From the IMG/VR virus record IMGVR_UViG_3300017963_000029, positions 1 through 64,000 of that record: a stretch of DNA of 64,000 nt. One strand, given 5' to 3'. Source of the stretch: a virus. Of this stretch, positions 1 to 64,000 are shown one piece after another (positions within the stretch are counted from its first letter, which is position 1; each line of letters starts with the position of its first letter). The translations under genes and the position numbers were made by a program. The notes under the pieces were generated by a model. The model made no database searches and was not told the DNA's origin. It saw only the letters and a list, made by a program, of their open reading frames with translations.

Positions 1-424
1 GAAAGCCGCCGGCTCCATCTTCCCTACCATCTCCTTCGGGCAACCTCCCTCCCACATCCTCTCCGCGCTCAAAAACGCCGCCGCGCGTTACGGCGTTCCC
101 CTCGGTATCATGAAAGGGGTGGCGCACACCGAAAGCCGCTACAGCCCGACCGCGACAAGCCGTGTCGGCGCCAAGGGCCTGATGCAGCTGATGCCGGTGG
201 TGATCAGGACCTACGGCATCTCCAATCCCTTCAGCCCTACCCAAAGCGCGCTAGGAGGAGCGAGGTTCCTGTCCAAGATGTACCGCAAATACGGCAACTG
301 GCCCCAAGCACTCGCCGCCTACAACTGGGGACCCGGTAATGTCGACCGCCGGCCGGCGATGCAGCAGTGGCCCAGCGCGACCCAGCACTACGTCAAGAAC
401 GTGATGGGCAAAGCCGCTGCCTAA
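1..424 (+). CDS. Lytic transglycosylase (SLT domain), 5'-truncated by window edge
   Basis: Frame is open from position 2. SLT motifs: AHTES (catalytic E), GAKGLMQLMP, ALAAYNWGPG, TQHYV. Confidence 0.92.
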   Translation, partial: KAAGSIFPTISFGQPPSHILSALKNAAARYGVPLGIMKGVAHTESRYSPTATSRVGAKGLMQLMPVVIRTYGISNPFSPTQSALGGARFLSKMYRKYGNWPQALAAYNWGPGNVDRRPAMQQWPSATQHYVKNVMGKAAA

Positions 425-942
425 CGTGTAGTAGCCCTCTCCGCCAACTTGAGCTGCTTTTCCGTCAACTCTCTCACCCTACGCTCTCTACGAGCGGAGC
501 GTATATCTTTGTACACGTCGTATGCGATGTACCCCACGAGTAGAATCCCACCGTAAGTTATCCCCGTCTTCATGAGGTCCAGTAAATCGTCGAGAACTCC
601 TTTTTTCGGTCTCCCAAAATCTGCAGTCGATTGCGCTTCGGGTTCATGTCCCAACACCTTTGCGACCCGCTTGCGCTCTTTTTCGTAAATCACCCTGGCC
701 TCGTCAAGGCGTTTCAACGTATCGGCTTGAAAAAATACATCAAACCCCGCTGCCACCGTCCCAAACTGATCTGTCCATCTCTTATATTTTTCATAAGGCC
801 CGCGGGAGGGCACGTTCATATTAGCTGGCGTTGTTGAAAAAGCCTCTTCTAGATACAGCGTATGCCACTCCCCTAACAGTTGAAATATACGATTAATCAA
901 CTGATTTGGTGTTAGGAAAGTCCAGGCTCCTAGTTCCGACAT
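421..942 (-). CDS. Membrane-anchored virion protein (C-terminal TM); paralog-like to 24257-24709
   Basis: Start moved to the ATG overlapping the upstream stop (TGATG). C-terminal hydrophobic stretch GITYGGILLVGYIAY is followed by a basic tail. Confidence 0.6.
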   Translation of the reverse strand: MSELGAWTFLTPNQLINRIFQLLGEWHTLYLEEAFSTTPANMNVPSRGPYEKYKRWTDQFGTVAAGFDVFFQADTLKRLDEARVIYEKERKRVAKVLGHEPEAQSTADFGRPKKGVLDDLLDLMKTGITYGGILLVGYIAYDVYKDIRSARRERRVRELTEKQLKLAERATTR

Positions 943-1214
943 CAGATCTTTCTCCAGGACTTGATATACCCCTCGCGGCGGAGCGAGTAAAGGAGGAACA
1001 ACCAGGCGGTGATGGTCATCGAACCCAACAACGCACCACCTGCAAGCTGTCCTCCTCGAACGCCGGCAAGCGCCAGCCCTGGCGTGAGCACCAACGCGCG
1101 CTGAACCGTACCGGCCATTACCCGGCCCCATCCCCCCGGTTGCTTCTCAAGCACCGACGCGACGTTGTACGAGGTCGGCGGCGACTCCCGCTCTATGTAG
1201 GGATGCGGCTTCAC
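942..1214 (-). CDS. Small membrane protein
   Basis: Two hydrophobic segments; translationally coupled to both neighbours. Confidence 0.6.
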   Translation of the reverse strand: MKPHPYIERESPPTSYNVASVLEKQPGGWGRVMAGTVQRALVLTPGLALAGVRGGQLAGGALLGSMTITAWLFLLYSLRREGYIKSWRKI

Positions 1215-1639
1215 TTACCCTCTAAATACCCTCGTCCCGGCAACATCGACGCCACCGTCAACATGGCGAGACCGGTTCCTCCCACCATCGCTCCGTGTTT
1301 GACAGCCTCGTCCTTAGAAATGAAGTAAACCCCCAACGTGGCCAGAAGCGCCCAGAACGAGATGTTCTGCACCCGGTGTGGAGCCATGAACGTCGACTGA
1401 TAAAAAGAAGGAGGCTTTTCGGTGGCCGGTCCTTCCACCACCCTGAACTTCCCGACCGGATTGCCCTCGGCGCGGAGTTCCTCCTTGCTGCCCTTGATCC
1501 ACTCCTTCGCGTCCTTCTTGTTACTGAAGGTATCCCAAGCAGAGTGCCACTTTTTCTCACCCGGGATCTGAAACTCGACGTGATAGGTATCACCCAGACA
1601 ATCCCCAAGACAGACGAACTGGTCCATGCTGTTACGCAT
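1211..1639 (-). CDS. Small membrane protein with two C-terminal TM segments
   Basis: Hydrophobic stretches FWALLATLGVYFI and AMVGGTGLAMLTVASML; overlaps its neighbours in operon fashion. Confidence 0.6.
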   Translation of the reverse strand: MRNSMDQFVCLGDCLGDTYHVEFQIPGEKKWHSAWDTFSNKKDAKEWIKGSKEELRAEGNPVGKFRVVEGPATEKPPSFYQSTFMAPHRVQNISFWALLATLGVYFISKDEAVKHGAMVGGTGLAMLTVASMLPGRGYLEGK

Positions 1640-1988
1640 CGCTATCCTCCAGTTTCATCGGTGGGGGCCCGGTCGGCGCCGTTATCTTGCAGAGCACCCA
1701 AAGCGCCCAAGGATAGGCTGGGCCACAAGCAAGCACGAGCTCGTGATTATTCTGCCACCCGGCAACCAGAATCGCTACCAGACCCGTGGACCAGAAGCTC
1801 ATGCACACGTCGCAGGCCCACGGCTTCTTGCGCTCCATCATCCACTTCTTGATAAAAGGAAGCGCCCGCACGGCCACCGTGATGCCGGCAGAGGTGGCCC
1901 CGATGAAAAGAGCCCAGAGCAATATTGACAGAGGAGAAAGCATTTCAACGTCTCGTCTCGACTTCCCATCCCTTGGGGCGAGTGACAT
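1632..1988 (-). CDS. Membrane protein with CxxC (DUF1360-like)
   Basis: TM - KPWACDVCMSFW - TM arrangement. The start may be the internal Met (MLSPLS). Confidence 0.55.
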   Translation of the reverse strand: MSLAPRDGKSRRDVEMLSPLSILLWALFIGATSAGITVAVRALPFIKKWMMERKKPWACDVCMSFWSTGLVAILVAGWQNNHELVLACGPAYPWALWVLCKITAPTGPPPMKLEDSDA

Positions 1989-2391
1989 AACCAGCTTTAC
2001 CTTCTGCCCGGATCCTCACCCGGAAGTAATCGTTTGCGAGCGGGATAACCTCGACGACCTCGAACTCCTTACCTGCTGCTGGCCCCATCCTCACCTTGAA
2101 TACATCCCCCGGAACAAGATCCTCCACAGCGACCATCGATCCCCCCGGAGAGATGCTCTCCTGTTTTTCCGTCATGCTGGGCCACGCTTCGCGGTAGCTC
2201 TCCACCGGATGAAGCGCCTGAGCCGACCGCCACTTCTTGAGCACCTTCCCGTTGTCGACCCGCTCCACCTGGTACCGACCTCGTTCCCACTTCTGAAGCT
2301 TTTTTCGGTCGTGAATAACACGAACCCGGACACGCTCACCACTCACGTAGGTGAGGTAAATACCACCGACTTTGATGTCCCGGGCTTTCAT
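1945..2391 (-). CDS. Hypothetical protein, two SH3/KOW-like small domains
   Basis: Repeated beta-rich units: ARDIKVGGIY and VEDLVPGDVF. Confidence 0.55.
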   Translation of the reverse strand: MKARDIKVGGIYLTYVSGERVRVRVIHDRKKLQKWERGRYQVERVDNGKVLKKWRSAQALHPVESYREAWPSMTEKQESISPGGSMVAVEDLVPGDVFKVRMGPAAGKEFEVVEVIPLANDYFRVRIRAEGKAGYVTRPKGWEVETRR

Positions 2392-2394
2392 TTA

Positions 2395-2679
2395 TCAGAA
2401 CATATGCGAAGGCAACTCCATACCTAGAGAGTTGGCAGCCTTGAAGATGTTGTTGCGAAGAAGAGCAGTGTCCCAACTACGACCTGATTTAACTACACCC
2501 ATCACCCTGCTCAACGCGGAAGTCGTAGCAGGATCGAGATCAAGTTCTTGCTGAAGCTTATGAATTACATCAAGAAGCAGCTCAGCCGACTGAGGATCTT
2601 CTTTCCTCAAACGATCATGAAGAAGAAGGGCGTCTTTCTTCGACACGATGTTGTAGAAAATTGTCATTCCGGTGCTCAT
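2395..2679 (-). CDS. Hypothetical protein
   Basis: Part of the coupled minus-strand run; helical, protein-like composition. Confidence 0.55.
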   Translation of the reverse strand: MSTGMTIFYNIVSKKDALLLHDRLRKEDPQSAELLLDVIHKLQQELDLDPATTSALSRVMGVVKSGRSWDTALLRNNIFKAANSLGMELPSHMF

Positions 2680-3164
2680 TGCCCCCCTCCGAAACCAATA
2701 TCCCCCTTGATGAAATCCCAGCCGGTATTGCCCATCCGGTTTTGCGCCCTGTCCATGTAGAAACCAAAAAGCCCCTCGACTTTTTGTGCTTCTTCCTTTG
2801 CCTCTCTAAGAAGCTTGCGGAGGTTGTTGCCTATGCTCTCCCAGACAACAGCGCGCGTACCATATTCGTCGAGAAGCTCTACCTTCTCTTCGTCACTCAA
2901 CTCCTTGATGCTTCTCCCCTGTTCGATCCATCCGCGAAACTCTACCGCAGCGGCCAGATGTTCGTCCCCTGCTTCCGAAGGAGCTACTACAGAGATGGTC
3001 ACGACATGTTTACCCAGCCTCCGGGCTTCTCCCTCTCCCATCCAAGCCGGCAAATACTTGGTGTCGACGACAAGCCAGTAGTCGAACTCTCCGTTATTAA
3101 GCTTCTGAGAGATCCACTTGGCGTGGTCTTCCGTCTTAAATAACTCGTTGAACCTTACCATCAC
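2676..3164 (-). CDS. Hypothetical protein
   Basis: Coupled start and stop with neighbours; acidic globular sequence. Confidence 0.6.
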   Translation of the reverse strand: MMVRFNELFKTEDHAKWISQKLNNGEFDYWLVVDTKYLPAWMGEGEARRLGKHVVTISVVAPSEAGDEHLAAAVEFRGWIEQGRSIKELSDEEKVELLDEYGTRAVVWESIGNNLRKLLREAKEEAQKVEGLFGFYMDRAQNRMGNTGWDFIKGDIGFGGGQ

Positions 3165-3907
3165 TACCTCTTGATGAAGGTCATGCCAGCGAGCGCGAGC
3201 CCGATGATCAAAGCCGTGGTGGCAAATGCTCCCTTGGCCGGTGTGGGAGGATCAGGCACCGGTACCGGCTCCACCTTGAAGGGTTTTCGAGTACGCCCGA
3301 AACCGAGACCGCAGAGGCCGCTTATCTTACCGAGAACCTGGTGCGACTCGCGCATCACCCGGAGGACCTCCCTTTCCTTCTCCACCGTCAATTCCCGATC
3401 GGTGGGCCGGATGGCCACGGTCCACTGGTAAACAGCTCTCGGCGCGAACTTGATCTTGTTCTCGACGCTCGGCGTTTTATAACAGTGGTACACGAGTCCC
3501 TTGAAGGGTCCTGCTCCCATGTACAACTCATAGGCGCACAAGGGTTTGTTGACCTTCCGGAACATCCACACCGGGCTGGCATCCTGAACGAATACCGGCT
3601 CCCCCACTATCTCGAATCCCAGCTCCTCGAGCTTGGGGACGACGGACAAAGCAACCTCTTCCTTCGTGGGCATCCGGTACACTTCTCCGCCGCCGACCCC
3701 GCCGGCGCCTGACGCCATGAACTTGCTTTCAACGCACTTGCGGATGGTGATCTTGAGCCCCGGTGTGGTGTTGTTCGCCACCTTCTTCTTGGCAGGCACC
3801 ACCGGAGGAACAACCGCCCCCAACCCGGAGAAAGGCGCATTGCGAGTCGGGGCTACCCTGGTGGTAGTCCAACTGGTGCCATCCAGGCCATGTATCTCCA
3901 TCGGCAT
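3164..3907 (-). CDS. C-terminally anchored virion membrane protein
   Basis: AGGAG RBS; N-terminal IHGLDG and FSGLG motifs; Pro linker then TM (AFATTALIIGLALAGMTFI-KR). Confidence 0.65.
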   Translation of the reverse strand: MPMEIHGLDGTSWTTTRVAPTRNAPFSGLGAVVPPVVPAKKKVANNTTPGLKITIRKCVESKFMASGAGGVGGGEVYRMPTKEEVALSVVPKLEELGFEIVGEPVFVQDASPVWMFRKVNKPLCAYELYMGAGPFKGLVYHCYKTPSVENKIKFAPRAVYQWTVAIRPTDRELTVEKEREVLRVMRESHQVLGKISGLCGLGFGRTRKPFKVEPVPVPDPPTPAKGAFATTALIIGLALAGMTFIKR

Positions 3908-3916
3908 CGCGCTCTC

Positions 3917-4120
3917 CTAGGTGTAAGTATCGCAGGGACAATCGTCGGTGAACTCGAACTCCGCCTTGTTCCCGCGGCGGCGAACGACGATCCATTTCTG
4001 TAGCGGCGCCGAGAAATAGACATGTCGTCGGCTATTGGAGTACTCCGGTTGCGCCTGCGCCTGGTACCCCTGCAAGTGCATGTACATATCGGAGATCGGT
4101 ACTGTCGACTTCTGTGTCAT
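3917..4120 (-). CDS. Small hypothetical protein
   Basis: Fills the gap within the minus-strand operon. Confidence 0.5.
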   Translation of the reverse strand: MTQKSTVPISDMYMHLQGYQAQAQPEYSNSRRHVYFSAPLQKWIVVRRRGNKAEFEFTDDCPCDTYT

Positions 4121-4125
4121 GTCGT

Positions 4126-5808
4126 TCAGTCTTGTAGTTGTAGCTTTTGAAGATCCTTCAACTTCTCGGCCACGCCGCCCAGGCGAAGATATATTTTCGT
4201 TAAATTCCTCGCCGCAGCCATGTTGCCTATCTTCACAGCCCTCTCGATCTGCCGGGCCAGAGCTGCCTGCACAGCGGTGTTCTTGGTGAGAGCTGTCCCA
4301 ACTGCGTTGGTGGCCTCCATCTTCTCTGCAGTATCGGCAGTTTTTTGTGTTTCCCGGATCAACTTGTTTGTCTCGGCAACATTCTTCTGCGTGGGGGTTT
4401 TGGTTTTCTGAGCGGCGAGCTTTTTCTTCAACCTATCAACCTTCTTACGCAGTCTCTGGGCTTCCTTCCCGGCCTTTAGCGTAACCTTGGCTCGTCTTTT
4501 TGCTTTCTCCGTCAGTTGCTTGGCTTTTTTGCCTACGGACTTCTCAACCTTCTTCGCCCCCCTCGTACCTGGCCGAGACGCCGCCTTCTCCACCGCCTTG
4601 GCTTCTTGTTTCTGGCGTTGCTTCTTTCTTCGCTGCTTTCTCTCTGCCTTTTTCTTCTTCTGTTTTGCCTTTATTTGCCTGTTTAACTCGACCAGCTGGG
4701 CCTGTCTCTTCTTGTAATCCACTGCCAACGCGAACGCCCTGGCCTTGTCTTGAGGATTGTTTTTGAAGTATGTATCCGCAACAGCTTGAACATTAGTCTT
4801 GCTGCGCAAAAGATTTTCCACCTGGGCGCGGTCGAACTTCGCCAGCCGGGGATTGTTCCTCATGGGTACAGCATAAGCCATGGCTCCCGCCCCAATGAGA
4901 GAAGGGTTCTTCCGAAACTCTTCACCGAAAGCCTTGATGGCCGTCGCCATGATTGCCATACCCACATTACGAGCTGATTCCCTGGCACGGTTCCCTGCTT
5001 TCACCTCTGCTTTTCTTCTCTCCTCGGCTTTAACCTGTTCCTTGGCTTCTCTGTCTCTTTTTGCGAACTCAGGGTTGGCCATGAACATCTTGCGAAGCAT
5101 TGACCATCTTTTTTCTTTCTTACCCGTGGGTGTGGCCTCTATCCAAGTAACAGGAAAGGTGTACTTTGAATAAGGAGTTCGACCTCCTTTAGGGATCGGT
5201 ATCCTCCCTGCCTGCATGTCCCTCATGATCCCGACGAATCTTGCCTTCCGTCCGCTTATCGTCACGGTACGATGACCTTTATCATCGAAGTTCAATCGCA
5301 TTTTGATAGGTTTATTCGCTCTGTACCAGGCGATAGGATTTCCACCACGAGCCTTCGCATATGCAGCAAAAGCAGTGATAAGCGCCCCTCTCTTCTTTTT
5401 CGCACGGCGCTTTTTTTGTTTTGCACCGGTGAAGAGATCTACGAGAGGACCACAAACCAGGTCCGTTGGTATCGCGCCCCCGATGGGGCCTAACCCCGCG
5501 GCGGTGGTAGCTGCTGCAGCACCTGCTCGGGTGGCAGCCTCACAGGCCCCCTTGGCAGCGCCTTCCACATCACCGCTCGCGGCCTGTGTCCCGTATTTGA
5601 ACGCCTCTTCCTCTACACCAGCCAGACCCAGAAGCTCCGCATCCGCGAGCCCGACCGTGCTCGGCATGAGCGGCAGCCGTCCACTGTCGGGAAAGGCGCT
5701 GCCGCCGCTGTAGTTCGCCCCGGAAGACGCATCGATGACGTTCTTCCGGATCCGGACGTTGGGGATGCGAGCGAGAGCACCCCCACCTTCACCTATCTCA
5801 ATCGCCAT
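4126..5808 (-). CDS. Lys/Arg-rich putative core (DNA-condensing) protein with N-terminal 38-aa repeat
   Basis: GAGGAG RBS; very basic coiled-coil C-terminal half; N-terminal VRIRKNVIDASSGANYSGG...VGLA motif shared with the next gene. Confidence 0.7.
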   Translation of the reverse strand: MAIEIGEGGGALARIPNVRIRKNVIDASSGANYSGGSAFPDSGRLPLMPSTVGLADAELLGLAGVEEEAFKYGTQAASGDVEGAAKGACEAATRAGAAAATTAAGLGPIGGAIPTDLVCGPLVDLFTGAKQKKRRAKKKRGALITAFAAYAKARGGNPIAWYRANKPIKMRLNFDDKGHRTVTISGRKARFVGIMRDMQAGRIPIPKGGRTPYSKYTFPVTWIEATPTGKKEKRWSMLRKMFMANPEFAKRDREAKEQVKAEERRKAEVKAGNRARESARNVGMAIMATAIKAFGEEFRKNPSLIGAGAMAYAVPMRNNPRLAKFDRAQVENLLRSKTNVQAVADTYFKNNPQDKARAFALAVDYKKRQAQLVELNRQIKAKQKKKKAERKQRRKKQRQKQEAKAVEKAASRPGTRGAKKVEKSVGKKAKQLTEKAKRRAKVTLKAGKEAQRLRKKVDRLKKKLAAQKTKTPTQKNVAETNKLIRETQKTADTAEKMEATNAVGTALTKNTAVQAALARQIERAVKIGNMAAARNLTKIYLRLGGVAEKLKDLQKLQLQD

Positions 5809-6722
5809 GCTGCTCTCCTCGTGTTTTTATACTGCTGGTGGCGTTACCTCTTCTATCGGAAAGGTAGGAGCGGCATGGGACGGTACGGCATCGGACGCGG
5901 AACCGGAGGCCGATACGGAGGCCGTACCGGTACCGGGAGAGGAGCAGGTCTGCCCGTCAACTTCATCAGCAAGTTGCGCCGCATCGTGCGGATCCGCGCG
6001 AGCTCGCGACCCAACGCCGAGAGCTTCATGAGAGCCATCCTGCGTTGCTGCGGCGACATGCCACGATATGCCTTCTGGATCTTCTGCGCCGCACCCTTCA
6101 ACCTCTTCAGCCGCTTGCGCCCTGCCTTCTGCTTGAAGGCTTTGACAAACCGCGACCTCTTGAACCTTAGCGGGTTGGTGGGCACGAAACCGAGACCAGC
6201 CAACAGCGTCTCGTCGGCGGCATCGTCGGTAGCATCCAGGGAGTTGAGGCCGGCCAGGCCGACCGAACTGGGCATCAGCGGAATGCGTCCACTGTCCGGG
6301 TAGGAGCTTCCACCGCTGTAGTTCGCCCCGGAGGACGCATCGACGACGTTTTTCCTGATCCGGACGTTACCCCCCTGAACCGACATCGAGGAGCCGAAGT
6401 GGGCGTCGAGCTCTCCCAACGGGATGCCATCGTAGCAACCACCCACGCAGCCGCCCGCGAGGCCCGCGCTGCTGACCGTCAGCGGGATGCCGCCGCTGTC
6501 CGGGAAATCTGATCCGCCGGTGTAGTTCGCCCCCTGAGACGGGTCCACCACATTCCGACGAGGAGGAAGCACGCTCACGGTCTTCTGGTAGGCCAACAGA
6601 TCCGCATCCGCGAGCCCGACCGAACTGGGCATCAGCGGAATGCGTCCACTATCCGGGTAGGAGCTTCCACCGCTGTAGTTCGCCCCGGAGGACGCGTCGA
6701 TGACGTTTTTCCTGATCCGGAC
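5644..6722 (-). repeat. Four dispersed copies of a ~114-bp coding repeat (5644-5757, 6252-6365, 6456-6560, 6609-6722)
   Basis: Directly visible, e.g. 'tgtagttcgcccc' is present in all four copies; the 6252 and 6609 copies are near-identical. Confidence 0.9.
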
Positions 6723-6827
6723 GTCGCTGGCCTGCGCGCCGGCGGCTTCCGCCTGCGCGGGAGAGGCGTCAAGGCCTCCGAGTTCCAGGCCGTCCAGAAC
6801 GGCGATTTCATCTCCGAGATGTGGCAT
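5853..6827 (-). CDS. Putative core precursor: three 35-38-aa repeats plus Arg/Lys-rich C-terminus
   Basis: Start at MPHLGD after GAGGAGAACAGAC. The repeats end in GLA, and LAGLG precedes the basic C-terminal domain. Confidence 0.7.
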   Translation of the reverse strand: MPHLGDEIAVLDGLELGGLDASPAQAEAAGAQASDVRIRKNVIDASSGANYSGGSSYPDSGRIPLMPSSVGLADADLLAYQKTVSVLPPRRNVVDPSQGANYTGGSDFPDSGGIPLTVSSAGLAGGCVGGCYDGIPLGELDAHFGSSMSVQGGNVRIRKNVVDASSGANYSGGSSYPDSGRIPLMPSSVGLAGLNSLDATDDAADETLLAGLGFVPTNPLRFKRSRFVKAFKQKAGRKRLKRLKGAAQKIQKAYRGMSPQQRRMALMKLSALGRELARIRTMRRNLLMKLTGRPAPLPVPVRPPYRPPVPRPMPYRPMPLLPFR

Positions 6828-6843
6828 GTCTGTTCTCCTCTGG

Positions 6844-9800
6844 TTACTTCCTTCCCAACAATAGCGCGATTGCGCCCAAAGCGACACCCCCTATGGCGAG
6901 CGGCAGGACCATTCCTGCGCCTTCTTTTTTCGGCTCGGGGGGAGGAACCGGTGGAGGTACCGGAACCGGTACCGGAACGGGAATTGGGGGCGGCGGAGGG
7001 GGAGGTGGCGGCGGTGGAGGAATCGGCACCGGAATCGGTACGGGGATCGGCGGCGGAGGCGGAGGTGGCGGCGGTGGAGGAGGTGGTGGGGGAGGCGGCG
7101 GAGGAATCGGCTGATCTTCCGGTTTGCGCCCTATTTTATTATTGGCAATCAAGGTGGCCAGCTGCTGATTGAACAACAGGAAGTCGTCCGTCTCGCTCCG
7201 GATCATCTGCGACAGCCCCTGGCGCGCGACCGCCTCGGCCCCGGCCTTGGCCACCACCGTATTTCCCATCACCAGGGCGAGCTTCCGCCAGTTCTGTCCC
7301 GTCAGGAGCGCCTCGGAAAGCGGTTGATCCAGCGTGTCCAGGGCCGTGGCCGAGAAGGATACCGCGTCCTCAAAATACGCCATGAGGGTTCCCAACTCTG
7401 CCGCGTCGGGATACGTCTTTGTCGCCGTGGCATCCATCACCTCCCGCAACTCCGGGTTCTCCTCAAGCATGTTGCGCGCTCGAGCAATGACGCGCCGGCC
7501 GGCACCCAGCCACTTCAAGTAGATGTCGCTCGCGGTCTCAGTAAGCCCCTCGGTGTTGGAAACACGCTTCACGGCGCCCATGATCTTCGGCCCGAAGGCC
7601 TCCATGACCTTGATGGACTCTGCAAGCCGCGACCAGGACCTCTTTGCTGCCTCCGGGATGGTAGGAGGAGGCGGTGGAGGAGGTGGTTGATCCGGCTTTT
7701 TCAGGCTTCGACGATAGTCCCGCGCCGAGATCTTGATTCTCTTGGCCTCAAGCGGTGTCAACAGGACGGTCTTCTTGTCCTTGGACACCTTGCGAGGCAG
7801 CGCGATCTTCCACGCCGGTACCAATCTCATGCCTTTGCCGACCGAGTCCGGGTGCAGCGCATCGATGAGCCCCTGCTGGGTGCTCTTCGTCCACTTCCCC
7901 GTCAGCTTGCCGGCGACCGCAACCTTGTAGCCGCTGAACGTCAGTGCCTGCTGAACGTGCAGGACCTTGACCGGCGTGTTCATCTTCTTCATCAACGCCC
8001 GGACGCGCTTCTGGAGCTTCTTTTTCGGATCTTCCGGCGGTGTCGGCGGCGGAGGCTTCTCGATGCTCTGTCGATAAAGCTCCGCGCGCTCCTGCATCGC
8101 GTCATGCCACCTCGGGGTGGTGAGCAACGTCATCCGATCGACAGACACCACCATCGGTACCATGGCCTCGAGAACCGGAATGGCTGCAGGCTTTTTGTGA
8201 GCTTCGATGATGTACTGGAAGTACCCCCGCTTGGTGGCGTCATCCCAGGTGCCGGTGGCCTTCACCGTGGGGGCGATCTTCTCCTTGAGGACCTCGGTCC
8301 ACAAGATGGCCTGCTGAACCGTCAGCACCGGTATCTCCACCGTCTGAAGCTCTGCCAGGCGGCGAGCCTGCGCCTTGATATCGTCCTCTTCCGGCTTTTC
8401 CGGTTCATCAGGCTTCGGCGGCGGAGGCTTGGTGCCGGCCACAATCGCCTCAAGCTTGTCCGCGATGTTCTTTCTGAGTCGGGTGATGGTCTTGCGGTTC
8501 TTGGAAACGCGGTACCCGGTATTCACCCCGTGGTCGATCTTGAGGATGTACGTGTTGAGCGAAGCCGCGGTCACGTCGTCGAAAAACGCCCCGGGACCGA
8601 TCTTCTTACCGATGGCGGCAAAGGCCTTCTTCACCTTGGCCACCGAGATGCTCACTCGAGGAGGCGGCTTGGGGGCACCTACCGACGCCTTCTGAAGTTC
8701 CTCGCCTATCGCGCGCGGAACCCTGATCGACTTGCGGTTCTTGGCAACGACGTACTCCACCGTCGAGCCTGGCGGAGTGTATCGTTCTTGAAAAGCGTTC
8801 TCAGTCCTCGAACCCCAGTACCCGTCGGTGTCGAGAAGAGGTTTCACGCCCTTACCGTTGAGCCCGGCCTGGACGGTGGAGACCTTGAGGACGACCGTGG
8901 CCGGCTTCGGTTTCGGCTCGGGCTTCGGCTTCGGTGGCCGCGGTGCCCGCGCATCCGAAGTCATCTTCAAATAGGCCTTCTCGTTGACGCGTGCCTCCTT
9001 CGACGAGACCTTGACGAAGAGAGGGTTGAGCCCGCGTCTCTGGGCCGACTTCTGCCAGGCCGCCTTTGTCGCGGCATCGGGGCGCCCGGTGGGCTTTACG
9101 GTGCGCTTTCGCCACTGGAGCCCGTACAGAATGGCCTGAAGCTCTGCGGCATTTTTGACCACGGTACCGGGCCGTGGTTTAGGCTCGGGGGGTGGTGCCG
9201 GCGCAGGAATAAAAGGCTTGGGCTCGGGCTTCGGCTTCGGTTTGGCCTCCTCCACCGCCAGCTGGTACCCCTTGTCGAGCTCCGCGGCGACCCGCTTGTC
9301 GATCTTCACCACATCCGCCTTGGCCGTCTTCTCAACGTTGGGGATGGCGTTTATTCTGTCCGCGGCGATCTTCACCGCCTCGATGGTGGGGGCGTCCGGG
9401 CGCCGGGTTATCTCCACCGGTGTGCCCTGGAGCTTTCCCTTCTTCACCCAGTAGTTGAACCCTCGCTGGATTTTCACCACCGCGATGGGAACCATCCCTG
9501 CGGCGCGCTTGGCCTTCATGCCGGCGGCGGCCTTCAGCTGCAGATAGGTCCGGTGAGAGACGGTGGCAATGAACGGGCCCACGCGCTTGAACAACGGATC
9601 GAGCTTCCGGGTCTTGGCCGACGTCTCCCAGGCCCCTTTTGTTTTCGGGCCGTATTTCTTGTCGATGGCTACCTTCGCCGCGCTCCAGCCTAGACCGCGC
9701 AAGATCTTCTGCGCCATCTCCACCTTGATGTTGACCAGCCTCTCGGCCTTGGTGGGGGCTTCCTTCGGCTTTGACACGAAGGGTACCAGCCGACTCCCGG

Positions 9801-10158: not shown

Positions 10159-10583
10159 AACACCACCTTTGAAACAACCATCGGAACCTGCCCAACAACA
10201 GGTTGGCCACCCGCGTCAGATATCACCTGAGCATAGAGGTGGTCGGTCGGTAACAACACCGCCCGGTACCTGTCGTTCAACTGTCCAGGTGCGGCCGGCG
10301 GGTTGAAAGTTATCAGCACCCCCGACTCCCCCATCGATTCTGACGAGGAAAATAAAACGCGTGCTCCTACAGCACCAGCCTGCGCCGGAAGCCACACCTC
10401 GATGTAATACACCTGGTGATTCTTGGAAGGATTCTTGGCCAGCTCCTCCGAGTTAGCCGTCGGAACACGCACCACACTGCGCGTCCCATGCGCGACTCTC
10501 TTCGGGCCCACCACCGACGCCAGGTAAGCTCTGATGTTGAGATTACCTTCGCCTGGATCGTTATCTAAATCGAATGGCAACAC
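10155..10583 (-). CDS. Beta-rich minor capsid/penton-like protein
   Basis: GGAGG RBS with GTG start; alternating beta pattern ending LLPTDHLYAQ...VVSKVVF; lies in the capsid cluster. Confidence 0.5.
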   Translation of the reverse strand: MLPFDLDNDPGEGNLNIRAYLASVVGPKRVAHGTRSVVRVPTANSEELAKNPSKNHQVYYIEVWLPAQAGAVGARVLFSSSESMGESGVLITFNPPAAPGQLNDRYRAVLLPTDHLYAQVISDAGGQPVVGQVPMVVSKVVF

Positions 10584-10596
10584 GGTGCCTCCCTAG

Positions 10597-11157: not shown

Positions 11158-11207
11158 ACGGGACTCTCCGAAAAGGGCCTAAAGAGGAAACGCGAAAGAG
11201 CGTTGCC

Positions 11208-11231
11208 CCGGCCTCCCTCGCGGGAGGCCGG
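11208..11231 (-). terminator. GC-rich hairpin directly downstream of the MCP candidate
   Basis: CCGGCCTCCC-tcgc-GGGAGGCCGG perfect 10-bp stem, followed on the - strand by a pyrimidine-rich stretch. Confidence 0.65.
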
Positions 11232-11254
11232 AACACCCAACCGGGGACAGCCCG

Positions 11255-53585: not shown

Positions 53586-54428
53586 GTGCGAATACTTCAA
53601 CGAGGGAGTAAGGGACAGGCGGTTGTCGGACTCAAGGAACGCCTCGCCGCGCAGGGGTTCTGGCCCGACCATCTGATGGGGCTCGATTTCACTCCGAAGC
53701 TCGAAGACGCGGTGGCGTACTTCCAGATGACGCACCTGGGGCCCGACGGTAAACCTCTCGCAGTCGACGGGAAGGTGGGTCCCAATACCGAATGGGCCTT
53801 GAAACATCCTACCGGGAAGGCCCAGACGTCGAACATCTCGCCGGCAGGAACCAAGACCGGGGGCCCGAAGTTCAACATCCCCGACGGGCTCAGCCTCGAA
53901 CGGTACGAGACGTTGATGCGGGCGCTCGGGGAACACGGCGTCCGGGAAAGGCCCATGGGGAGCAACCGCGGGCCCGGCATCGACAAGTACCTCCCGCGGT
54001 GGTGGCTCGAAAAGGAAGGGAAGGGCCCGGCCTGGTGCTGCTTCTTCGTAAGCTGGGTGGTTCGTCAGGTCTTCGGTTTCCATCCGCTGGGGCGCAACCA
54101 CGGCTCGTGCAAGCAGGCCTGGAAGGCCGCCCAGGAGCGCGAGATGGCTTATCAGGTACACGAGGTGGATACGATAGTCCCCGGAGATGCATTCTATATG
54201 CGGTGGAGGGGTGGAGGGCACATCGGTTTTATTTACCGGGTGTCGGAGGACGGCCAGGAGATGAATACGGTGGAAGGGAACTGCGGCAACAGGGTAAAGG
54301 TGGGCCGACGTTCCCTTTCGGACGAGAGGATCTTCGGCATCATCGACTTCTACGGAGAAGAGTATCCGGACGAATTTGAACGTGGTCTCATCGAGGCCAA
54401 GGACGTGGCGAAGGACGGCACGCGGTGA
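53586..54428 (+). CDS. Endolysin: PG-binding domain plus CHAP amidase
   Basis: LQRGSKG..V..LK..L...G; VDGKVGPNT; SNRGP; AWCCFFVSW (Cys); GHIGF (His); TVEGN. Confidence 0.9.
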   Translation: MRILQRGSKGQAVVGLKERLAAQGFWPDHLMGLDFTPKLEDAVAYFQMTHLGPDGKPLAVDGKVGPNTEWALKHPTGKAQTSNISPAGTKTGGPKFNIPDGLSLERYETLMRALGEHGVRERPMGSNRGPGIDKYLPRWWLEKEGKGPAWCCFFVSWVVRQVFGFHPLGRNHGSCKQAWKAAQEREMAYQVHEVDTIVPGDAFYMRWRGGGHIGFIYRVSEDGQEMNTVEGNCGNRVKVGRRSLSDERIFGIIDFYGEEYPDEFERGLIEAKDVAKDGTR

Positions 54429-54957: not shown

Positions 54958-55538
54958 AAATGTGTAAGGAAGGAAAGTGTAGTAAGTGCGGACGAAAGTT
55001 TAGTAAATCGGCAGTGCTTCCCGGTCACGCGATAACACTTCTGATAGGGGGTCCTCGTTGTTACCAGTGTTACTACGAGGAGCAGGGGTGGGACCTTGAG
55101 ACGTGCGTGGACTGCGAGAAGAAATTTCCCTTGTCCGAGGGCCTCGTTTTAACCATGGACGGCCCGCTGTGCATGGAGTGCAACCCCAGCGGTGCGATCG
55201 ATCCGCCTCCGGAGAGTGCTTTACCGGAGGGTGCGGACCTTCCACCGGGTGTAGGGTTTCCCGTGTCCGAGTCGGTCATGGGGAGCCTGGTCTCCAACTT
55301 CGTGTCCGGGATGTTCGATCGGATGGGCAGCAGGGAGCGCATCGCTACGGTGATGTTGGGAGCTAATCAAGTATTTGATGGTTTACAAGCCATAGCCCAT
55401 ACGATTTGGGAAGGTAGAGAGCCTTCTTTTTTGAGCAGAGAGGATTTAATAAAAGAATCTTTGAAGGACGCAGACGCGCTCATTGCGGCGCTACGTTCTA
55501 ACAAGGGAGATAAAAATGAAAACGGTGAGGTTCAATAA
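54954..55538 (+). CDS. Double Zn-finger protein
   Basis: CSKC...CYQC and CVDC...CMEC; C-terminal ADALIAAL. Confidence 0.6.
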   Translation: MKMCKEGKCSKCGRKFSKSAVLPGHAITLLIGGPRCYQCYYEEQGWDLETCVDCEKKFPLSEGLVLTMDGPLCMECNPSGAIDPPPESALPEGADLPPGVGFPVSESVMGSLVSNFVSGMFDRMGSRERIATVMLGANQVFDGLQAIAHTIWEGREPSFLSREDLIKESLKDADALIAALRSNKGDKNENGEVQ

Positions 55539-55746
55539 GGTAGGGCTCGACGTCAACTTTGAACGTGTGGGCGACGAGCTACAGGTAAGCATCAACGTAC
55601 CGGCACCCATGGTGAACGAGAAGCTCAAGATGTTGCAGGACTTCAAGGAGAGGGCTCGCTACCTCCCCGGGCTCGGGCCCGTGTACCACGTCATCAGCCT
55701 CCTCGAGGCGGCCATCATCGGAGCCCTGGAGGAACCACCCAAGTGA
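55516..55746 (+). CDS. Hypothetical protein
   Basis: GGGAG RBS. Confidence 0.5.
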   Translation: MKTVRFNKVGLDVNFERVGDELQVSINVPAPMVNEKLKMLQDFKERARYLPGLGPVYHVISLLEAAIIGALEEPPK

Positions 55747-58589: not shown

Positions 58590-59183
58590 ATGCCGTTAGT
58601 ACCCGTAGATAATAAGCCAGGACTGTTTCGTGATACGATTACCGGACAGGTTTTTAATGTTCGCGAGTATCGTGGCTCAGATCTTATTTTCCCTTTTGAA
58701 GGTGGTCGTGCCATACCCAAGGAGTCCTGGCAACCAGAACCAGGAGCTTCGATGGCACTACAGGCGTGGTCCTTTCTCATGTATCCATGGCCAGAGGTTA
58801 TTCCTGTCACCCTGCGAGCCAAGTTGTACGTCAATGGTGACATCATGGCTGAGGGGCCTTTATTTGCTCTAGCTGAACCTCTGGTACGTGCTGAGGACGA
58901 AGAGATACGGGAGCGGTTACGTGTCGTGGAAGAAAAAATAGAGACGCTCGAAATCGAAATGAAGGAAGCTAAAAAAGAGAAGGACCTTTCTGGCGACCCT
59001 AGAGCTGTTCACATACCTTCCAAGATTTACCCGGTTACTCGTTTAAGGAATCTAGTAGACATGAAGCACAAGTTGTGGGCAGAAATCGAGGGTCCAGGTA
59101 ATGATTTTGTACCATTGCGCGAGAAGCTGGAACTACTGGCACTTCGTTTACGCGGTGTAGGACGTGAGCCGGTGAAAGATTGA
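58590..59183 (+). CDS. Divergent paralog of the putative MCP (11255-11917) with coiled-coil insertion
   Basis: MPLVPVDNKPGLFRDTITGQVFNVREYR matches MPLMPIEGQPGLFRDSDTGQIVNIRDFR, with further colinear matches. Confidence 0.75.
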   Translation: MPLVPVDNKPGLFRDTITGQVFNVREYRGSDLIFPFEGGRAIPKESWQPEPGASMALQAWSFLMYPWPEVIPVTLRAKLYVNGDIMAEGPLFALAEPLVRAEDEEIRERLRVVEEKIETLEIEMKEAKKEKDLSGDPRAVHIPSKIYPVTRLRNLVDMKHKLWAEIEGPGNDFVPLREKLELLALRLRGVGREPVKD

Positions 59184-60506: not shown

Positions 60507-60997
60507 GCCGCCTGTTCGAGGACCACTGGGACGTCCGGTTCATCCGGCTCGCGGAGCATATTGCCGGCTGGAGCAAGGACCCGTCGACCAAGGTGGGCTG
60601 CGTCATCGTCGGCCCGGACAAGGAGATCCGCTCCACCGGCTTCAACGGCTTCCCGCGGGGCATCAAGGATGACCCCCGGAGGCTCGAAAACCGCGACGAG
60701 AAGTACCCGCTCATCTGCCACGCGGAGGAGAATGCCATCTTGCAGGTGGCACGGGTCGGCGGCGCATCGCTCCGGGACTGCTGGGTGTACATCACCTGGC
60801 CACCCTGTACCCGGTGCGCGCGGTCCATCGTGCAGGCCGGTATCAAGGGGGTGAGCTACCCGCAGGGGCTCGACGTTCCTGAAAGATGGTGGTCGGACCT
60901 TGAGAAGGCCCGCTCGATGCTCGACGAGGCCGGGATCTTCGTCCGGACGGTCGCCGTCAAGCTCAAACAGACGTCGTCAGAGGTTTCTATCGGCTGA
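60503..60997 (+). CDS. dCMP deaminase
   Basis: SKDPSTKVGCVI; GFNGFPRG; HAEENAI; PCTRC. Confidence 0.93.
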   Translation: MSRLFEDHWDVRFIRLAEHIAGWSKDPSTKVGCVIVGPDKEIRSTGFNGFPRGIKDDPRRLENRDEKYPLICHAEENAILQVARVGGASLRDCWVYITWPPCTRCARSIVQAGIKGVSYPQGLDVPERWWSDLEKARSMLDEAGIFVRTVAVKLKQTSSEVSIG

Positions 60998-61595
60998 ACT
61001 GCCGCCAGAGGATCCATCCACCGGCTCCTAACGCCAGGAGCAACACGAGACCGCCGGCCGCCGCCGGCGCGATGTCTTCGAAGCGCCAGCCACCGGCGTC
61101 GTAGAAGGGCTTGAGGAGCGGGTACGGGTTTATCTTTCGCTTGTAGGGGCTGGTGATGGCGTAGTGCAGGTGCGGACAGGTGTGGATGGCATTCCCGGTG
61201 CGCCCGACGTAGCCAATAACTTGCCCCGCGGTGACCGGTTGGCCCGGTCGGACCTTGGGGCGTTTCTGCAGGTGGGAGTAGTAGTGCTCGTTGCCGTCGG
61301 GGTCTCGGATCCAGACGTACCAGCCGCCCTTTTCGGAATATCCGGCTCCTGGTAGCCCCCGCCATTCGCGCATCACGGAGCCTGCCGTCGTCGAGCGGAT
61401 GGGGGTCCCCTCCGCAGCCACGATATCGGTCGCGTGGTGCTTGAACTGCCCGCGGGGGGCCAGGAAGGAGTCCCAGAAACGCGGGCGCCAGCCGCTCTCC
61501 TTGTCCGGGTAGCAGGTCTTCCCGTGAGCTCCCACCCGATATCCCCGGAACTTGCTGGGGACCTGGACCGGGAAGACCGACAGGGTTACGGGCAT
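60987..61595 (-). CDS. M23 family peptidase with C-terminal membrane anchor
   Basis: HHATDI; YYSHL; GQVIGYVGRTGNA..CPHLHY; INPYP; TM GGLVLLLALGAGGWILW. Confidence 0.9.
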   Translation of the reverse strand: MPVTLSVFPVQVPSKFRGYRVGAHGKTCYPDKESGWRPRFWDSFLAPRGQFKHHATDIVAAEGTPIRSTTAGSVMREWRGLPGAGYSEKGGWYVWIRDPDGNEHYYSHLQKRPKVRPGQPVTAGQVIGYVGRTGNAIHTCPHLHYAITSPYKRKINPYPLLKPFYDAGGWRFEDIAPAAAGGLVLLLALGAGGWILWRQFSR

Positions 61596-62757: not shown

Positions 62758-62808
62758 TGTATTGTCTGTCCTTCCTCGCCTACAGGGACGGGGTTTTGGG
62801 TTCTACTG

Positions 62809-63021
62809 CTACGACGGGTTCTGCGGGTAGAAGGTCGTTATCATGGTGTCGGCCTCCTGCGCGCTGAATCCCCATCGTTGAAGTCTTCGGTGGAGGCGTT
62901 GTGCGTTGACGCCCTTGTTCACGAGGCAGACCATGGCCTCGTTGATGGCTTCCTGTGAAGCGCCGTCTCGTTTGGCGCGTTGCAAGGTGCGCCGGGCCTC
63001 TGCTCTTTGTTCGATGGGCAT
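62809..63021 (-). CDS. Small helical protein
   Basis: Lies in the minus-strand operon; resembles the C-terminal half of 61667-61918. Confidence 0.5.
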   Translation of the reverse strand: MPIEQRAEARRTLQRAKRDGASQEAINEAMVCLVNKGVNAQRLHRRLQRWGFSAQEADTMITTFYPQNPS

Positions 63022-63030
63022 TTTATCTAC

Positions 63031-63858
63031 CTATCCCAGATCCTTAGGGAGATCGAACTCTGCGAAGAGGGTGGCGATGTACAGCTTGCCGATGGGGTTA
63101 CCATCGTTGGGTTGTACCTCGAGTCGGTACGGGTACGGAAACATGTGAGACTCGATGGTGTCCAAGAAGATGTTTCCGACGCTGTTTGCGCCAACAGAAT
63201 CGGTGTTGGACATCAACACCCGGTTTCCCTGGTCGTCGGACACGTAGCAGTTGAAGGTGTGGGGGTCCGAGTCGTAGTTGAACGCCAGGATGCTGGCCCC
63301 ACAGGGGTAGGAGCTGGTGGCCGGCATCTGCCAGGTCTTGCCCACCGGAGGTTGTGCGATGACTGTTCTTCCTCCGTTCACGATGGGGATGCGCTCGCAG
63401 ATGGCGTTTCGGGCATCGTGGATCGAGACGGGAATGAAAAGCAGTCCGTCGTTACCGGAAGGGTCGCCGCTCGTGATGCGGATGACCACTTTCTCACCCT
63501 CGACGAAACCAAACACGGCACAAGCCGGGTTGGGGGAGGGAATCTGGTCAAAACTTCCGTCCGAGAGAAGGGCGACGGTAGCGAGAGTGATCTCGTTTCC
63601 GTTCGCGTCGATGAAGATCACATCGTAGCCGATGTCCACGCCGCATCGGTTGTACAGGGATCCGATGGTCTGAAAGGCCACGACCCCTGCGAGACGGATC
63701 TTGTCCTTCAAGCCCTCGAGGACGGTGTGCTGACCTCCGGACTTGATGGGGACGATCTCGCCTGCGCCTTTCACGCCTTCGAAAAGGACTACAGGTCCCG
63801 GGCTGGTGTTCTTACCGGCGCGTTTCTGAAGGGGGTTGTCCCCGATTCCAGCTGGCAT
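63031..63858 (-). CDS. Two-domain beta-rich structural protein
   Basis: GAGGAGAAGACATG start; FIDANGNE, FVEGEKV, VIAQPPVG and FNYDS motifs. Confidence 0.65.
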   Translation of the reverse strand: MPAGIGDNPLQKRAGKNTSPGPVVLFEGVKGAGEIVPIKSGGQHTVLEGLKDKIRLAGVVAFQTIGSLYNRCGVDIGYDVIFIDANGNEITLATVALLSDGSFDQIPSPNPACAVFGFVEGEKVVIRITSGDPSGNDGLLFIPVSIHDARNAICERIPIVNGGRTVIAQPPVGKTWQMPATSSYPCGASILAFNYDSDPHTFNCYVSDDQGNRVLMSNTDSVGANSVGNIFLDTIESHMFPYPYRLEVQPNDGNPIGKLYIATLFAEFDLPKDLG

Positions 63859-64000
63859 GTCTTCTCCTCACCTACAGGGGTTGAGAGTCGCTTCAGATTA
63901 CCACGATTACGTATTAAAGGAAGAGGTCTGTAGCGTGCCAAAACAATGTTACCCAGGCTTGCCGCGGTACTTCTGCCACTCCCGATAGAAATCCCTCCAG

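Follow-up and report, generated by a model that had tools for sequence, protein, structure and literature searches.

The 64,000-nt window analysed here, taken from the IMG/VR record IMGVR_UViG_3300017963_000029, is most likely part of a complete 82.6-kb genome, circular or terminally redundant, that belongs to an uncultured bacterial virus. Modelled folds and gene content suggest that this virus probably has no packaging motor and builds its shell from small jelly-roll proteins, in a manner resembling SPV1. The contig is 82,687 bp long and both its ends carry an identical 123 bp, so the genome is complete at ~82.56 kb, with 77% of it in the window and 18.7 kb outside. An initial annotation of the window had put the genome at 64 kb or more, and the identical ends place it beyond that minimum. 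Two complete relatives, G001 and G002, are 88.8 and 101.9 kb long; G000, G001 and G002 are all DTR records, 100% complete and classed as viral in IMG/VR.

How widespread are such genomes? The family of the 220-aa protein, whose gene is the best conserved in the lineage, falls into 241 clusters at 50% identity, and the contigs that carry it are never above ~102 kb. Dozens of metagenomic contigs share a collinear block of ~12 genes; the longest of these contigs measure 64-102 kb, and L002-L007 as well as the complete genomes G001 and G002 have the block in the same gene order. The 220-aa protein averages 62% identity, the 186-aa protein 54% and the protease 53%, against 30-43% for the remaining block genes. 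A literature search gave no paper describing the lineage, and no homologue was found among GenBank phages or in 72,556 plasmid records. Apparently the lineage is widespread and undescribed, with complete genomes of ~64-102 kb. About two thirds of the ORFs in the present genome have no family match. The best explanation is drawn from predicted structures and gene content.

Which proteins might form the shell? The initial annotation had singled out three beta-rich ORFs (10155-10583, 10597-11157 and 11255-11917) and proposed two single-jelly-roll capsid proteins. All three ORFs are real and conserved, and the jelly-roll fold of the 186- and 220-aa proteins was checked by structure prediction. The 186-aa protein (10597-11157, minus strand), a candidate capsid shell protein, is convincingly predicted to fold as a single jelly roll nearest to SPV1 VP4. 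This icosahedral shell protein is the top PDB match of the model in two aligners, and four more shell proteins of membrane-containing viruses are matched at prob 1.00; beyond the top match, the jelly-roll matches are generic. The adjacent gene encodes the 220-aa protein (11255-11917, minus strand), a candidate major or penton capsid protein. Its model (pLDDT 69) gives a weaker jelly-roll match, with the other SPV1 chain, 6oj0_Z, as the top Foldseek match, and its Atlas language-model features lean towards the PM2 and PRD1 capsid families; a jelly-roll-like sandwich is moderately indicated. The proposal of two such capsid proteins is thus solid for the 186-aa protein and moderately supported for the 220-aa one. 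The 142-aa beta-rich conserved protein (10155-10583, minus strand; homologues in 35 loci) could possibly be a third jelly-roll or a vertex protein, a weak suggestion, the Atlas leads being PRD1 P5 spike N, XepA, Ena and cupin. Profile comparison showed no sequence relationship among the three proteins, and none of them has sequence similarity to any solved capsid protein; profile searches of PDB sequences with A1 and A2, taken as far as E 10, had no SPV1 chain among their matches. In this genome the 220- and 186-aa proteins have no signal peptides.

Judging from profile matches, the N-terminal module of the candidate 220-aa capsid protein recurs in two other genes, which is a new finding. The first 32 residues of a 197-aa protein (58590-59183, plus strand) copy the module (hhalign prob 97%, E 9.6e-11, 53% identity over 32 residues; arm HMM E 5.7e-11). 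A 114-aa basic, Cys-rich protein (52392-52736, plus strand) aligns through its last 40 residues with positions 19-67 of the 220-aa protein (hhalign prob 95%, E 4e-8), and the arm HMM matches it also. Database instances of the module lie behind Tat-like signals or membrane anchors.

The three beta-rich genes are part of the conserved minus-strand block (1632-16525), and as part of the same joint explanation this block is probably the virion module. Its first gene encodes a 312-aa Xer-type tyrosine recombinase (15587-16525; Phage_integrase E 2.9e-20 and Phage_int_SAM_1 in Pfam), whose best NCBIfam matches are XerA, XerD and XerC, each under the equivalog cut-off. Since its homologues adjoin the block in 24 loci, the recombinase belongs to the block by this sequence comparison, a further new finding. 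The next gene (13426-15576) gives a 716-aa acidic, low-complexity protein (net -42) that is conserved in 25 loci at ~30% identity and has no Pfam, PHROG, NCBIfam or PDB match; it is a candidate scaffold or tape-measure protein. A membrane protein and a GDCDD Cys protease had been noted beside the jelly-roll cluster, and both are indeed present upstream of it. The former is a 199-aa acidic Gly/Ala-rich protein with two to three hydrophobic segments by hydropathy (11985-12584; 55 loci). The latter is a 235-aa transglutaminase-fold cysteine enzyme (12676-13383; Transglut_core E 1.5e-13), membrane-anchored through a hydrophobic N-terminus, whose residues D158, C159, D160, H192 and D211 are kept without exception across 24 homologues. 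By its sequence it retains the catalytic triad (Cys159, His192, Asp211), which is also new.

On the other side of the cluster, and still on the minus strand, lies the gene of a 1104-aa polybasic protein (6844-10158; net +80) with homologues in 18 loci. It has about seven peptidoglycan-binding repeats (PG_binding_1 E 8.1e-10, and PG_binding_3), to which its PHROG endolysin matches are confined. Pro-rich linkers and a long poly-Pro tract are also present, and the protein is membrane-anchored at its C-terminus. A 344-aa protein (5853-6887; net +18; 19 loci) contains a 38-aa module in triplicate and ends in a basic tail rich in Pro and Arg, and a 560-aa protein (4126-5808; partial homologues in 10 loci) has one copy followed by a long Lys-rich helical region, with no family match in PHROG or Pfam. 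The 38-aa module is common to these two proteins. The block continues with a small conserved 67-aa protein (3917-4120; 14 loci and both complete relatives) and a 247-aa basic membrane protein (3164-3907) anchored by a C-terminal TM segment at residue 226, and at its far end is a conserved 118-aa protein (1632-1988; 11 loci and both complete relatives). The many C-terminally anchored membrane proteins first noted were found again at 3164-3907, 6844-10158, 23679-24260, 24257-24709, 55483-55746 and 60987-61595. The block has at least seven membrane proteins together with several polybasic proteins, and the basic proteins carry net charges of +80, +18, +28, +24 and +23. So many membrane proteins suggest that the virion may have an internal lipid membrane.

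Is there any sign of the usual packaging machinery? The window had been described as lacking terminase, portal, HK97 and tail genes, and in profile searches this proved true of the window and of the genome as a whole. Terminase, portal and HK97 genes were absent from the flanking 18.7 kb too; their presence there, or a lack of jelly-roll folds, was what the initial annotation had named as refuting its idea, which thus survived both tests. PHROG and Pfam searches of ~80 ORFs, including all of at least 350 aa, matched no terminase, portal, HK97 capsid or tail family. Six-frame searches with Terminase_6N, TerL_ATPase, Terminase_3, GpA_ATPase, Phage_portal, Phage_capsid, FtsK_SpoIIIE, Pox_A32 and PRD1 P3 were all empty over the whole 82.7-kb genome and the two complete relatives. 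For the large terminase, PF03237, PF03354, PF04466 and PF05876 had no match in the three complete genomes while control genomes were matched, and PHROG scans of all large ORFs gave none. The portal family PF04860 was found in none of the three genomes, nor was there a PHROG portal match. The same is true of the HK97 capsid (PF05065 in none of the three, no PHROG match), for which structure prediction covered two ORFs; a cryptic HK97 fold, in the ~299-aa core protein for instance, is conceivable. PF09018 (PRD1 P3), the sole double-jelly-roll capsid model searched, was in none of the three either. The search of the rest of the contig for an FtsK/A32-like ATPase was also negative, since PF01580 and PF04665 are absent here and in both complete relatives. 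In the motif scan, canonical Walker A motifs occur only in a RecD2-like helicase and the primase-helicase, with a GKT motif in the SF2 helicase; none lies in the conserved block, and no P-loop protein other than helicases was seen. ParA, VirB4 and VirD4 ATPases of Walker type were likewise missing from the motif scans. An FtsK/A32-type ATPase unites the Varidnaviria-type viruses with two single-jelly-roll proteins, P23-77, SH1 and HCIV-1. With this defining ATPase missing in three complete genomes, the Varidnaviria-like assignment of the initial annotation is not upheld as worded, and its reading as a whole is supported in part.

The replication arm was as first described, with primase-helicase, PD-(D/E)XK nuclease, SF2 helicase, PolA, dCMP deaminase and HD phosphohydrolase. 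Its conserved module (32988-40393, plus strand; Pfam and PHROG matches) contains the nuclease (32988-34340), the SF2 helicase (34340-36157) and the family A DNA polymerase (38264-40393), all three common to G001 and G002. The 825-aa primase-helicase (30195-32672, minus strand; PHROG DNA primase E 1.8e-92, Walker A motif) has no homologue in these two relatives. Further genes encode a RecD-type helicase, HNH and homing endonucleases, RadC, an intein and nucleotide-metabolism enzymes. A 280-aa endolysin (53586-54428, plus strand) joins PG_binding_1 (E 9.3e-5) with CHAP (E 3.6e-9). Two conserved genes divergent from the block (17801-18932, plus strand; 22 and 16 loci) encode proteins of 125 aa and ~299 aa, the latter Cys-rich, with no family or PDB match. 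Outside the core, a 187-aa protein with a fibre-tip-type domain (21353-21916, plus strand) matches phrog_16509 (E 3e-10) and phrog_24754, 'tail fiber protein' (E 2.5e-5), and by tblastn 67 Flavobacterium podophage records and 4 Vibrio phage records; from these matches it is a candidate receptor-binding protein. Its domain is shared with tailed phages, a caveat on the missing tailed-phage genes. Peptidoglycan-binding domains, the CHAP endolysin and a bacterial-type tmRNA gene are features of a bacterial host. The suggested Myxococcota host found no support: relatives, always free contigs of 11-86 kb, were binned with MAGs of Gemmatimonadota (twice), Actinomycetota and Anaerolineae, and the viral tmRNA does not resemble the tmRNAs of these MAGs.

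If there is no packaging ATPase, is there an icosahedral shell at all? The virion might be pleomorphic, enveloped or of some other new type, with the jelly-rolls as spikes, matrix or nucleocapsid-associated proteins. We consider this unlikely, although it would fit the missing ATPase, the many membrane or tail-anchored and very basic proteins, the generic matches past the top one, the reuse of the N-terminal module of the 220-aa protein in other proteins, and its place behind Tat-like signals or membrane anchors in the database. Against it, an icosahedral shell protein tops the PDB in two aligners, four further shell proteins of membrane-containing viruses score prob 1.00, and the extreme conservation of the 220-aa protein suits a protein that forms a lattice. 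Known pleomorphic prokaryotic viruses, moreover, have much smaller genomes (~7-17 kb). Slightly less likely again is a non-viral, plasmid-like replicon whose block builds a cell-envelope or secreted structure, the jelly-rolls being carbohydrate-binding or surface proteins. Jelly rolls are typical of carbohydrate-binding modules, and the block combines peptidoglycan-binding repeats and membrane proteins with a Xer-type recombinase, as in plasmid dimer resolution; free contigs binned into MAGs, the lack of packaging machinery and the lack of homologues in any GenBank phage also agree with a plasmid. However, the plasmid records hold no homologue, the motif scans gave no Walker-type ParA, VirB4 or VirD4, the 220- and 186-aa proteins here lack signal peptides, and three members are listed as viral in IMG/VR. 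The phage-type replisome also speaks against a plasmid, as do the endolysin, the HNH and homing endonucleases and the genes of nucleotide metabolism, and the narrow range of genome sizes (~64-102 kb) is expected under a capsid-volume constraint.

Least likely, and very improbable, is a tailed phage so divergent that profile searches miss its terminase, portal and HK97 capsid genes. The many ORFs without family match would leave room for it, and the replication module and the fibre-tip domain, known in podophages and myophages, would suit it. But seven terminase, portal and capsid families were blank in six frames of three complete genomes while controls responded, helicases are the only P-loop proteins, the unannotated ORFs of at least 400 aa are all low-complexity or non-core, and the best-conserved genes encode jelly rolls of 186-220 aa, below the size of the HK97 fold.

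How could a motorless jelly-roll virus of this size work? Its own module of PolA, SF2 helicase and nuclease would copy the genome, and the Xer-type recombinase might resolve multimers into unit circles. Polybasic proteins would condense the DNA; the peptidoglycan-binding repeats of the 1104-aa protein, which suit a periplasmic role better, speak against this step. A membrane studded with tail-anchored proteins would form around the DNA core, followed by a shell of jelly-roll capsomers, with no motor pumping DNA, as proposed for SPV1. Release would be through the CHAP endolysin, while the peptidoglycan-binding protein and the cysteine enzyme may attack the cell wall during entry or serve in the processing of virion proteins. 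No characterised motorless icosahedral virus is known to exceed ~20 kb, and a shell filled in this way with an 82-kb genome would be unprecedented.

Compared with known systems, the genome shares with PolA-replisome tailed phages (Caudoviricetes) the family A polymerase, SF2 and RecD-type helicases, primase-helicase, PD-(D/E)XK nuclease, dCMP deaminase, HNH endonucleases and intein, but by profile search not their terminase, portal, HK97 capsid and tail module. The double-jelly-roll phages (Tectiliviricetes), among them Tectiviridae and Corticoviridae (PRD1, PM2, SSIP-1; genomes 10-44 kb), infect bacteria, have no tail and enclose a membrane, and would be similar in their jelly-roll-based shells and virion-associated cell-wall enzymes. 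They differ by encoding an FtsK-type ATPase and a double-jelly-roll capsid protein (270-400 aa), whereas neither a P3-type capsid gene (PRD1 P3 model only) nor such an ATPase was found here. The Halopanivirales/Helvetiavirae (Sphaerolipoviridae, Simuloviridae, Matsushitaviridae; P23-77, IN93, SH1, HHIV-2, HCIV-1) have adjacent small jelly-roll capsid genes, bacterial hosts for P23-77 and IN93, and an internal membrane, a feature that the present virus may share. Yet their genomes are 17-31 kb, their conserved block starts with an FtsK/HerA (A32-like) packaging ATPase that is absent here and in the two relatives, and nothing in their sequences marks the 220- and 186-aa proteins as paralogues. 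Since the FtsK/A32 ATPase is absent, the nearest analogue is the motorless SPV1 (Portogloboviridae, PDB 6OJ0) and not the Halopanivirales. SPV1 has a hyperthermophilic archaeal host, in contrast to the bacterial features here, a genome of 20.2 kb against 82.6 kb (four to five times larger here), no detectable sequence similarity, and no polymerase (PMC8459092) where the present virus has its own PolA replisome. On the other hand, both have circular dsDNA genomes, and both are without a genome-packaging ATPase (SPV1: PMC8812541; here three complete genomes searched). Its small single-jelly-roll shell proteins include the best structural match to the 186-aa protein (VP4), and a second 6OJ0 chain weakly matches the 220-aa protein. 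In SPV1 the pentons are made of a second jelly-roll protein, VP10, and the nucleoprotein core is coiled. The structural module is in both cases rich in membrane and DNA-binding or basic proteins (SPV1: PMC8459092), and in SPV1 a nucleoprotein core lies under a membrane and a single-jelly-roll shell without any packaging ATPase (PMC8812541, PMC8459092).

The window is the first 64,000 bases of one contig. The contig is 82,687 bp long, its first 123 bases are identical to its last 123, and its IMG/VR entry lists direct terminal repeats and 100% completeness. Thus the genome measures about 82.56 kb and is circular or has terminal redundancy. GC content ranges from 52 to 65% along the window, and the ORFs picked by GC3 amount to about 120 genes, arranged in five strand blocks. 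Does this genome carry any hallmark gene of tailed phages or of Varidnaviria? About 80 ORFs, including every ORF of at least 350 aa in the whole genome, were scanned against PHROGs, Pfam and NCBIfam, and none gave a hit to a family of terminases, portals, HK97 capsids, tail tubes, sheaths, tape measures or baseplates. Six-frame searches covered the present genome and two complete relatives with terminal repeats, G001 (88,820 bp) and G002 (101,942 bp). Terminase_6N, TerL_ATPase, Terminase_3, GpA_ATPase, Phage_portal, Phage_capsid, FtsK_SpoIIIE, Pox_A32 and PRD1 P3 gave no match at E <= 1 in any of the three, and control genomes responded in the same family searches. The initial annotation had reported the window to be free of terminase, portal, HK97 and tail genes; by both kinds of search this holds for the complete genome as well, and terminase, portal and HK97 genes were looked for and not found in the 18.7 kb of flanking contig. 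The FtsK/A32-like ATPase for which it had looked to the rest of the contig is found neither in this genome nor in G001 or G002.

A canonical Walker A motif is present only in a RecD2-like helicase and a primase-helicase, and a GKT motif in an SF2 helicase. What G001 and G002 have in addition is limited to a MoxR-like AAA+ protein, which is not conserved, and a RecD-like helicase. The MoxR-like ATPase (G001 4334-5413) was considered as the packaging motor of the lineage and rejected, because its counterpart is missing from both the present genome and G002. The sole tail-flavoured match is a fibre-tip-type domain at 21353-21916, common to Flavobacterium podophages and Vibrio phages; it is a receptor-binding module, neither a tail hallmark nor a core gene. 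Adjoining the fibre-tip gene is a 408-aa acidic protein (22449-23675) with a weak Spherulin4-like, glycoside-hydrolase-type match (Pfam, E 1.3e-4), which could be a surface-polysaccharide depolymerase.

How far does the lineage extend? Related loci were collected from IMG/VR (2), GTDB genomes (4) and JGI metagenomes (63), and one collinear block runs across them. No marker-bearing contig is longer than about 102 kb, and the long ones gather at 64-102 kb. All four MAG matches are free contigs, not chromosomal insertions, and tblastn with a 220-aa protein (11255-11917) found its gene in no GenBank phage and no PLSDB plasmid. A search of sequencing runs placed the DNA in one sediment and one seawater metagenome, both possibly the source of the present DNA, and listed no RNA run carrying it. 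Literature searches found no account of the lineage. Besides the block, the three complete genomes have in common only a PD-(D/E)XK nuclease, the SF2 helicase, PolA and a cytosine methylase. The primase-helicase (30195-32672), which adjoins the GC-skew switch, has a homologue in neither G001 nor G002, although both do have homologues of PolA, of the SF2 helicase and of the nuclease; the initiator seems to be exchangeable within the lineage.

In the present genome the conserved block lies on the minus strand at 1632-16525. It starts with a Xer-type recombinase (15587-16525), an acidic low-complexity protein of about 716 aa, a transglutaminase-fold enzyme (12676-13383) and a small membrane protein, and continues with the 220-aa protein, a 186-aa protein (10597-11157), a 142-aa protein (10155-10583), a tail-anchored protein that measures about 1000 aa and carries peptidoglycan-binding repeats, a 38-aa-repeat protein and small proteins. 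On its far side the recombinase is flanked by two further conserved genes. Mean identity to the present genome is 62% for the 220-aa protein, 54% for the 186-aa protein, 53% for the transglutaminase-fold enzyme and 30-43% for the remaining block genes.

The initial annotation had proposed two single-jelly-roll capsid proteins, with the 220-, 186- and 142-aa proteins as the candidates, and structure prediction bears this out best for the 186-aa protein. Its model (42 sequences) is confident, with pLDDT 83, and shows an eight-stranded sandwich after an N-terminal helix. It matches in BFVD a protein of Sulfolobus polyhedral virus 1 (SPV1) named capsid protein VP4, in a list that also holds many unrelated sandwiches with similar E-values. 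The AlphaFold2 model of the 220-aa protein, from a 28-sequence alignment, is a beta-sandwich with a weaker pLDDT of 69, and a comparison with the ESM Atlas leans, at lead level only, to the PM2 P2 and PRD1 P3 capsid families. For the 142-aa protein there are only Atlas leads, to XepA, the PRD1 P5 spike N, Ena and cupin. No mutual relationship among the three was detectable by hhalign, and no sequence-level link from the 220- or 186-aa protein to any solved structure was found; PDB profile or sequence searches with the queries A1, A2, A4 and A5 and with a 409-aa protein gave nothing meaningful. The 220-aa protein has 271 homologues, the best 120 of which are all at least 62% identical, and a profile search finds 241 clusters at 50% identity, almost all with lengths of 205-250 aa. 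An AAGGAG ribosome-binding site belongs to its gene, and a 14-bp GC hairpin (z only -1.8) comes after it; this statistically weak signal is suggestive of high expression. A promoter and terminator consensus scan of the block showed no excess over shuffled controls.

A portable module makes up the first 30-65 residues of the 220-aa protein and is fused to unrelated proteins elsewhere in the present genome. Copies are found at the N-terminus of 58590-59183 (hhalign probability 97%) and at the C-terminus of 52392-52736 (95%), and also in one G001 gene (78758-79180, L075). In database proteins of 120-210 aa (P0235-P0270) the module follows a Tat-like RRxFL signal or a membrane anchor, and in several cases the protein stops exactly after the FFxDIQGK strand. 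Such a distribution would be consistent with an arm docking at the capsid, by which other proteins are recruited or anchored. At 69 other loci, no ORF with the arm module was found within 10 kb of the putative capsid gene except that gene itself.

Among the other block genes, the transglutaminase-fold enzyme has a hydrophobic N-terminus, and its Cys159, His192 and Asp211 are invariant across 24 homologues; it is probably catalytically active as a protease or cross-linker tethered to the membrane. The large anchored protein (1104 aa, net charge +80) combines about seven peptidoglycan-binding repeats and Pro/Lys-rich linkers with a long poly-Pro tract and a C-terminal anchor. Membrane segments occur in at least seven block proteins, and several further proteins are strongly basic. 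A 38-aa module, VRIRKNVIDASSGANYSGGS.YPDSGR.PLMPS.VGLA (4126-6887), occurs once in a 560-aa protein and three times in a 344-aa protein; both have very basic C-terminal tails, and no family match was found for them. The recombinase, which belongs to the conserved block, is Xer-like and not lambda-integrase-like. Taken with the missing terminase and the lack of an integrated copy, this suggests that it resolves replication multimers to unit circles.

Small genes at genome positions 70646-72510 (6646-8510 of L001, the contig part outside the window) and 76549-77127 encode extremely basic products of net charge +22 to +28. Their Lys+Arg content reaches 35% and some have four Cys, and they are candidates for DNA-condensing proteins. 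The RecD2-type helicase (1094 aa, genome 77357-80641, L001 13357-16641) is split by an intein with a LAGLIDADG homing endonuclease (Pfam Intein_splicing, LAGLIDADG_3). Unusual accessory genes of the replication arm (41086-43811 and 47549-48394) encode a Sulfotransfer_4 enzyme and a DnaJ-domain protein, and also a radical-SAM protein that weakly matches MoaA and viperin-like proteins. The 409-aa protein (genome 65455-66684, L001 1455-2684, minus strand) is hit by the Pfam model GP88 (PF17338, E 8.6e-15), which stands for a phage family with no known function and of which literature searches found no description; the protein has no homologue in G001 or G002, and tblastn against GenBank phages was negative.

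What is the host? A full tmRNA gene, together with the peptidoglycan-binding and CHAP domains, indicates that it is bacterial. The tmRNA gene is full-length (genome 72964-73332, L001 8964-9332, minus strand; RF00023, 121 bits) and encodes an unusually long tag, ANDNGNSEAAKLDLAA. Since it is missing from G001, it is an accessory rather than a core gene. The MAG bins with relatives belong to Gemmatimonadota (twice), Actinomycetota and Anaerolineae; the tmRNA tags of MAGs with relatives are ANTELALAA and ANNQMAMAA, and the viral tmRNA is no closer to the tmRNAs of such MAGs than generic tmRNA conservation. A Myxococcota host, which the initial annotation held to be probable, has no support; the viral tmRNA matches none of the tmRNAs of these MAGs.

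By structure prediction and gene content, the element has jelly-roll folds, a replisome of its own, an endolysin and a conserved module with many membrane proteins, and it lacks a packaging motor. A tailless virus with a jelly-roll shell is the somewhat favoured reading; an internal membrane and motorless assembly are proposed with less confidence. Among prokaryotic viruses, the characterised tailless ones with jelly-roll capsids are all small, about 10-44 kb, and all except SPV1 and FLiP fill their shells by an FtsK-type motor. The initial annotation had placed the genome, of at least 64 kb, in a Varidnaviria-like lineage. The jelly-roll-based tailless type, larger than the characterised ones, is retained, but the Varidnaviria-type ATPase is missing, and Portogloboviridae is therefore the better comparison. 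In the proposed mechanism, the PolA module would copy the genome, the Xer-type enzyme would yield monomer circles, polybasic proteins would condense the DNA, and membrane and single jelly-roll (SJR) shell would assemble around it, as in the model for SPV1 (PMC8459092, PMC8812541). The CHAP endolysin (53586-54428) would lyse the cell, and the peptidoglycan-binding protein, the cysteine enzyme and the fibre-tip protein may work at entry.

If an environmentally common lineage of 64-102 kb genomes is built on SPV1-like jelly rolls and has no motor, this architecture would extend to phage-sized genomes with full replisomes. As a bacterial analogue of Portogloboviridae, such a lineage would bear on the proposed route by which two-SJR viruses evolved from portoglobovirus-like ancestors (PMC8812541). 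Virus-detection pipelines would also prove to have a blind spot, as the marker gene is in only 2 of about 2.9 million IMG/VR contigs against 63 metagenome contigs. By computation entirely, the lineage is predicted to be an undescribed variant of a known architecture. In SPV1 there is a nucleoprotein core with an inner lipid layer, the capsomers are VP4 hexamers and VP10 pentamers, and an ATPase is lacking (PMC8459092, PMC8812541). The present genome shares with Portogloboviridae the lack of a packaging ATPase; it is not a member of that family, because there is no sequence homology, the genome is fourfold larger, the host is bacterial and it has its own replisome. One may tentatively suppose, as a rather unlikely possibility, that the archaeal portogloboviruses have their bacterial counterpart in this lineage: deep-branching, SJR, membrane-lined and motorless, with a circular DNA of 64-102 kb, a membrane and a shell built around the protein-condensed, Xer-resolved genome, and a detachable N-terminal capsid module recruiting other proteins into the particle. 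In that case there would be motorless SJR viruses in both prokaryotic domains, and the size limit known for tailless prokaryotic viruses would be about doubled. It would then be the first bacterial analogue of the isolated archaeal family Portogloboviridae.
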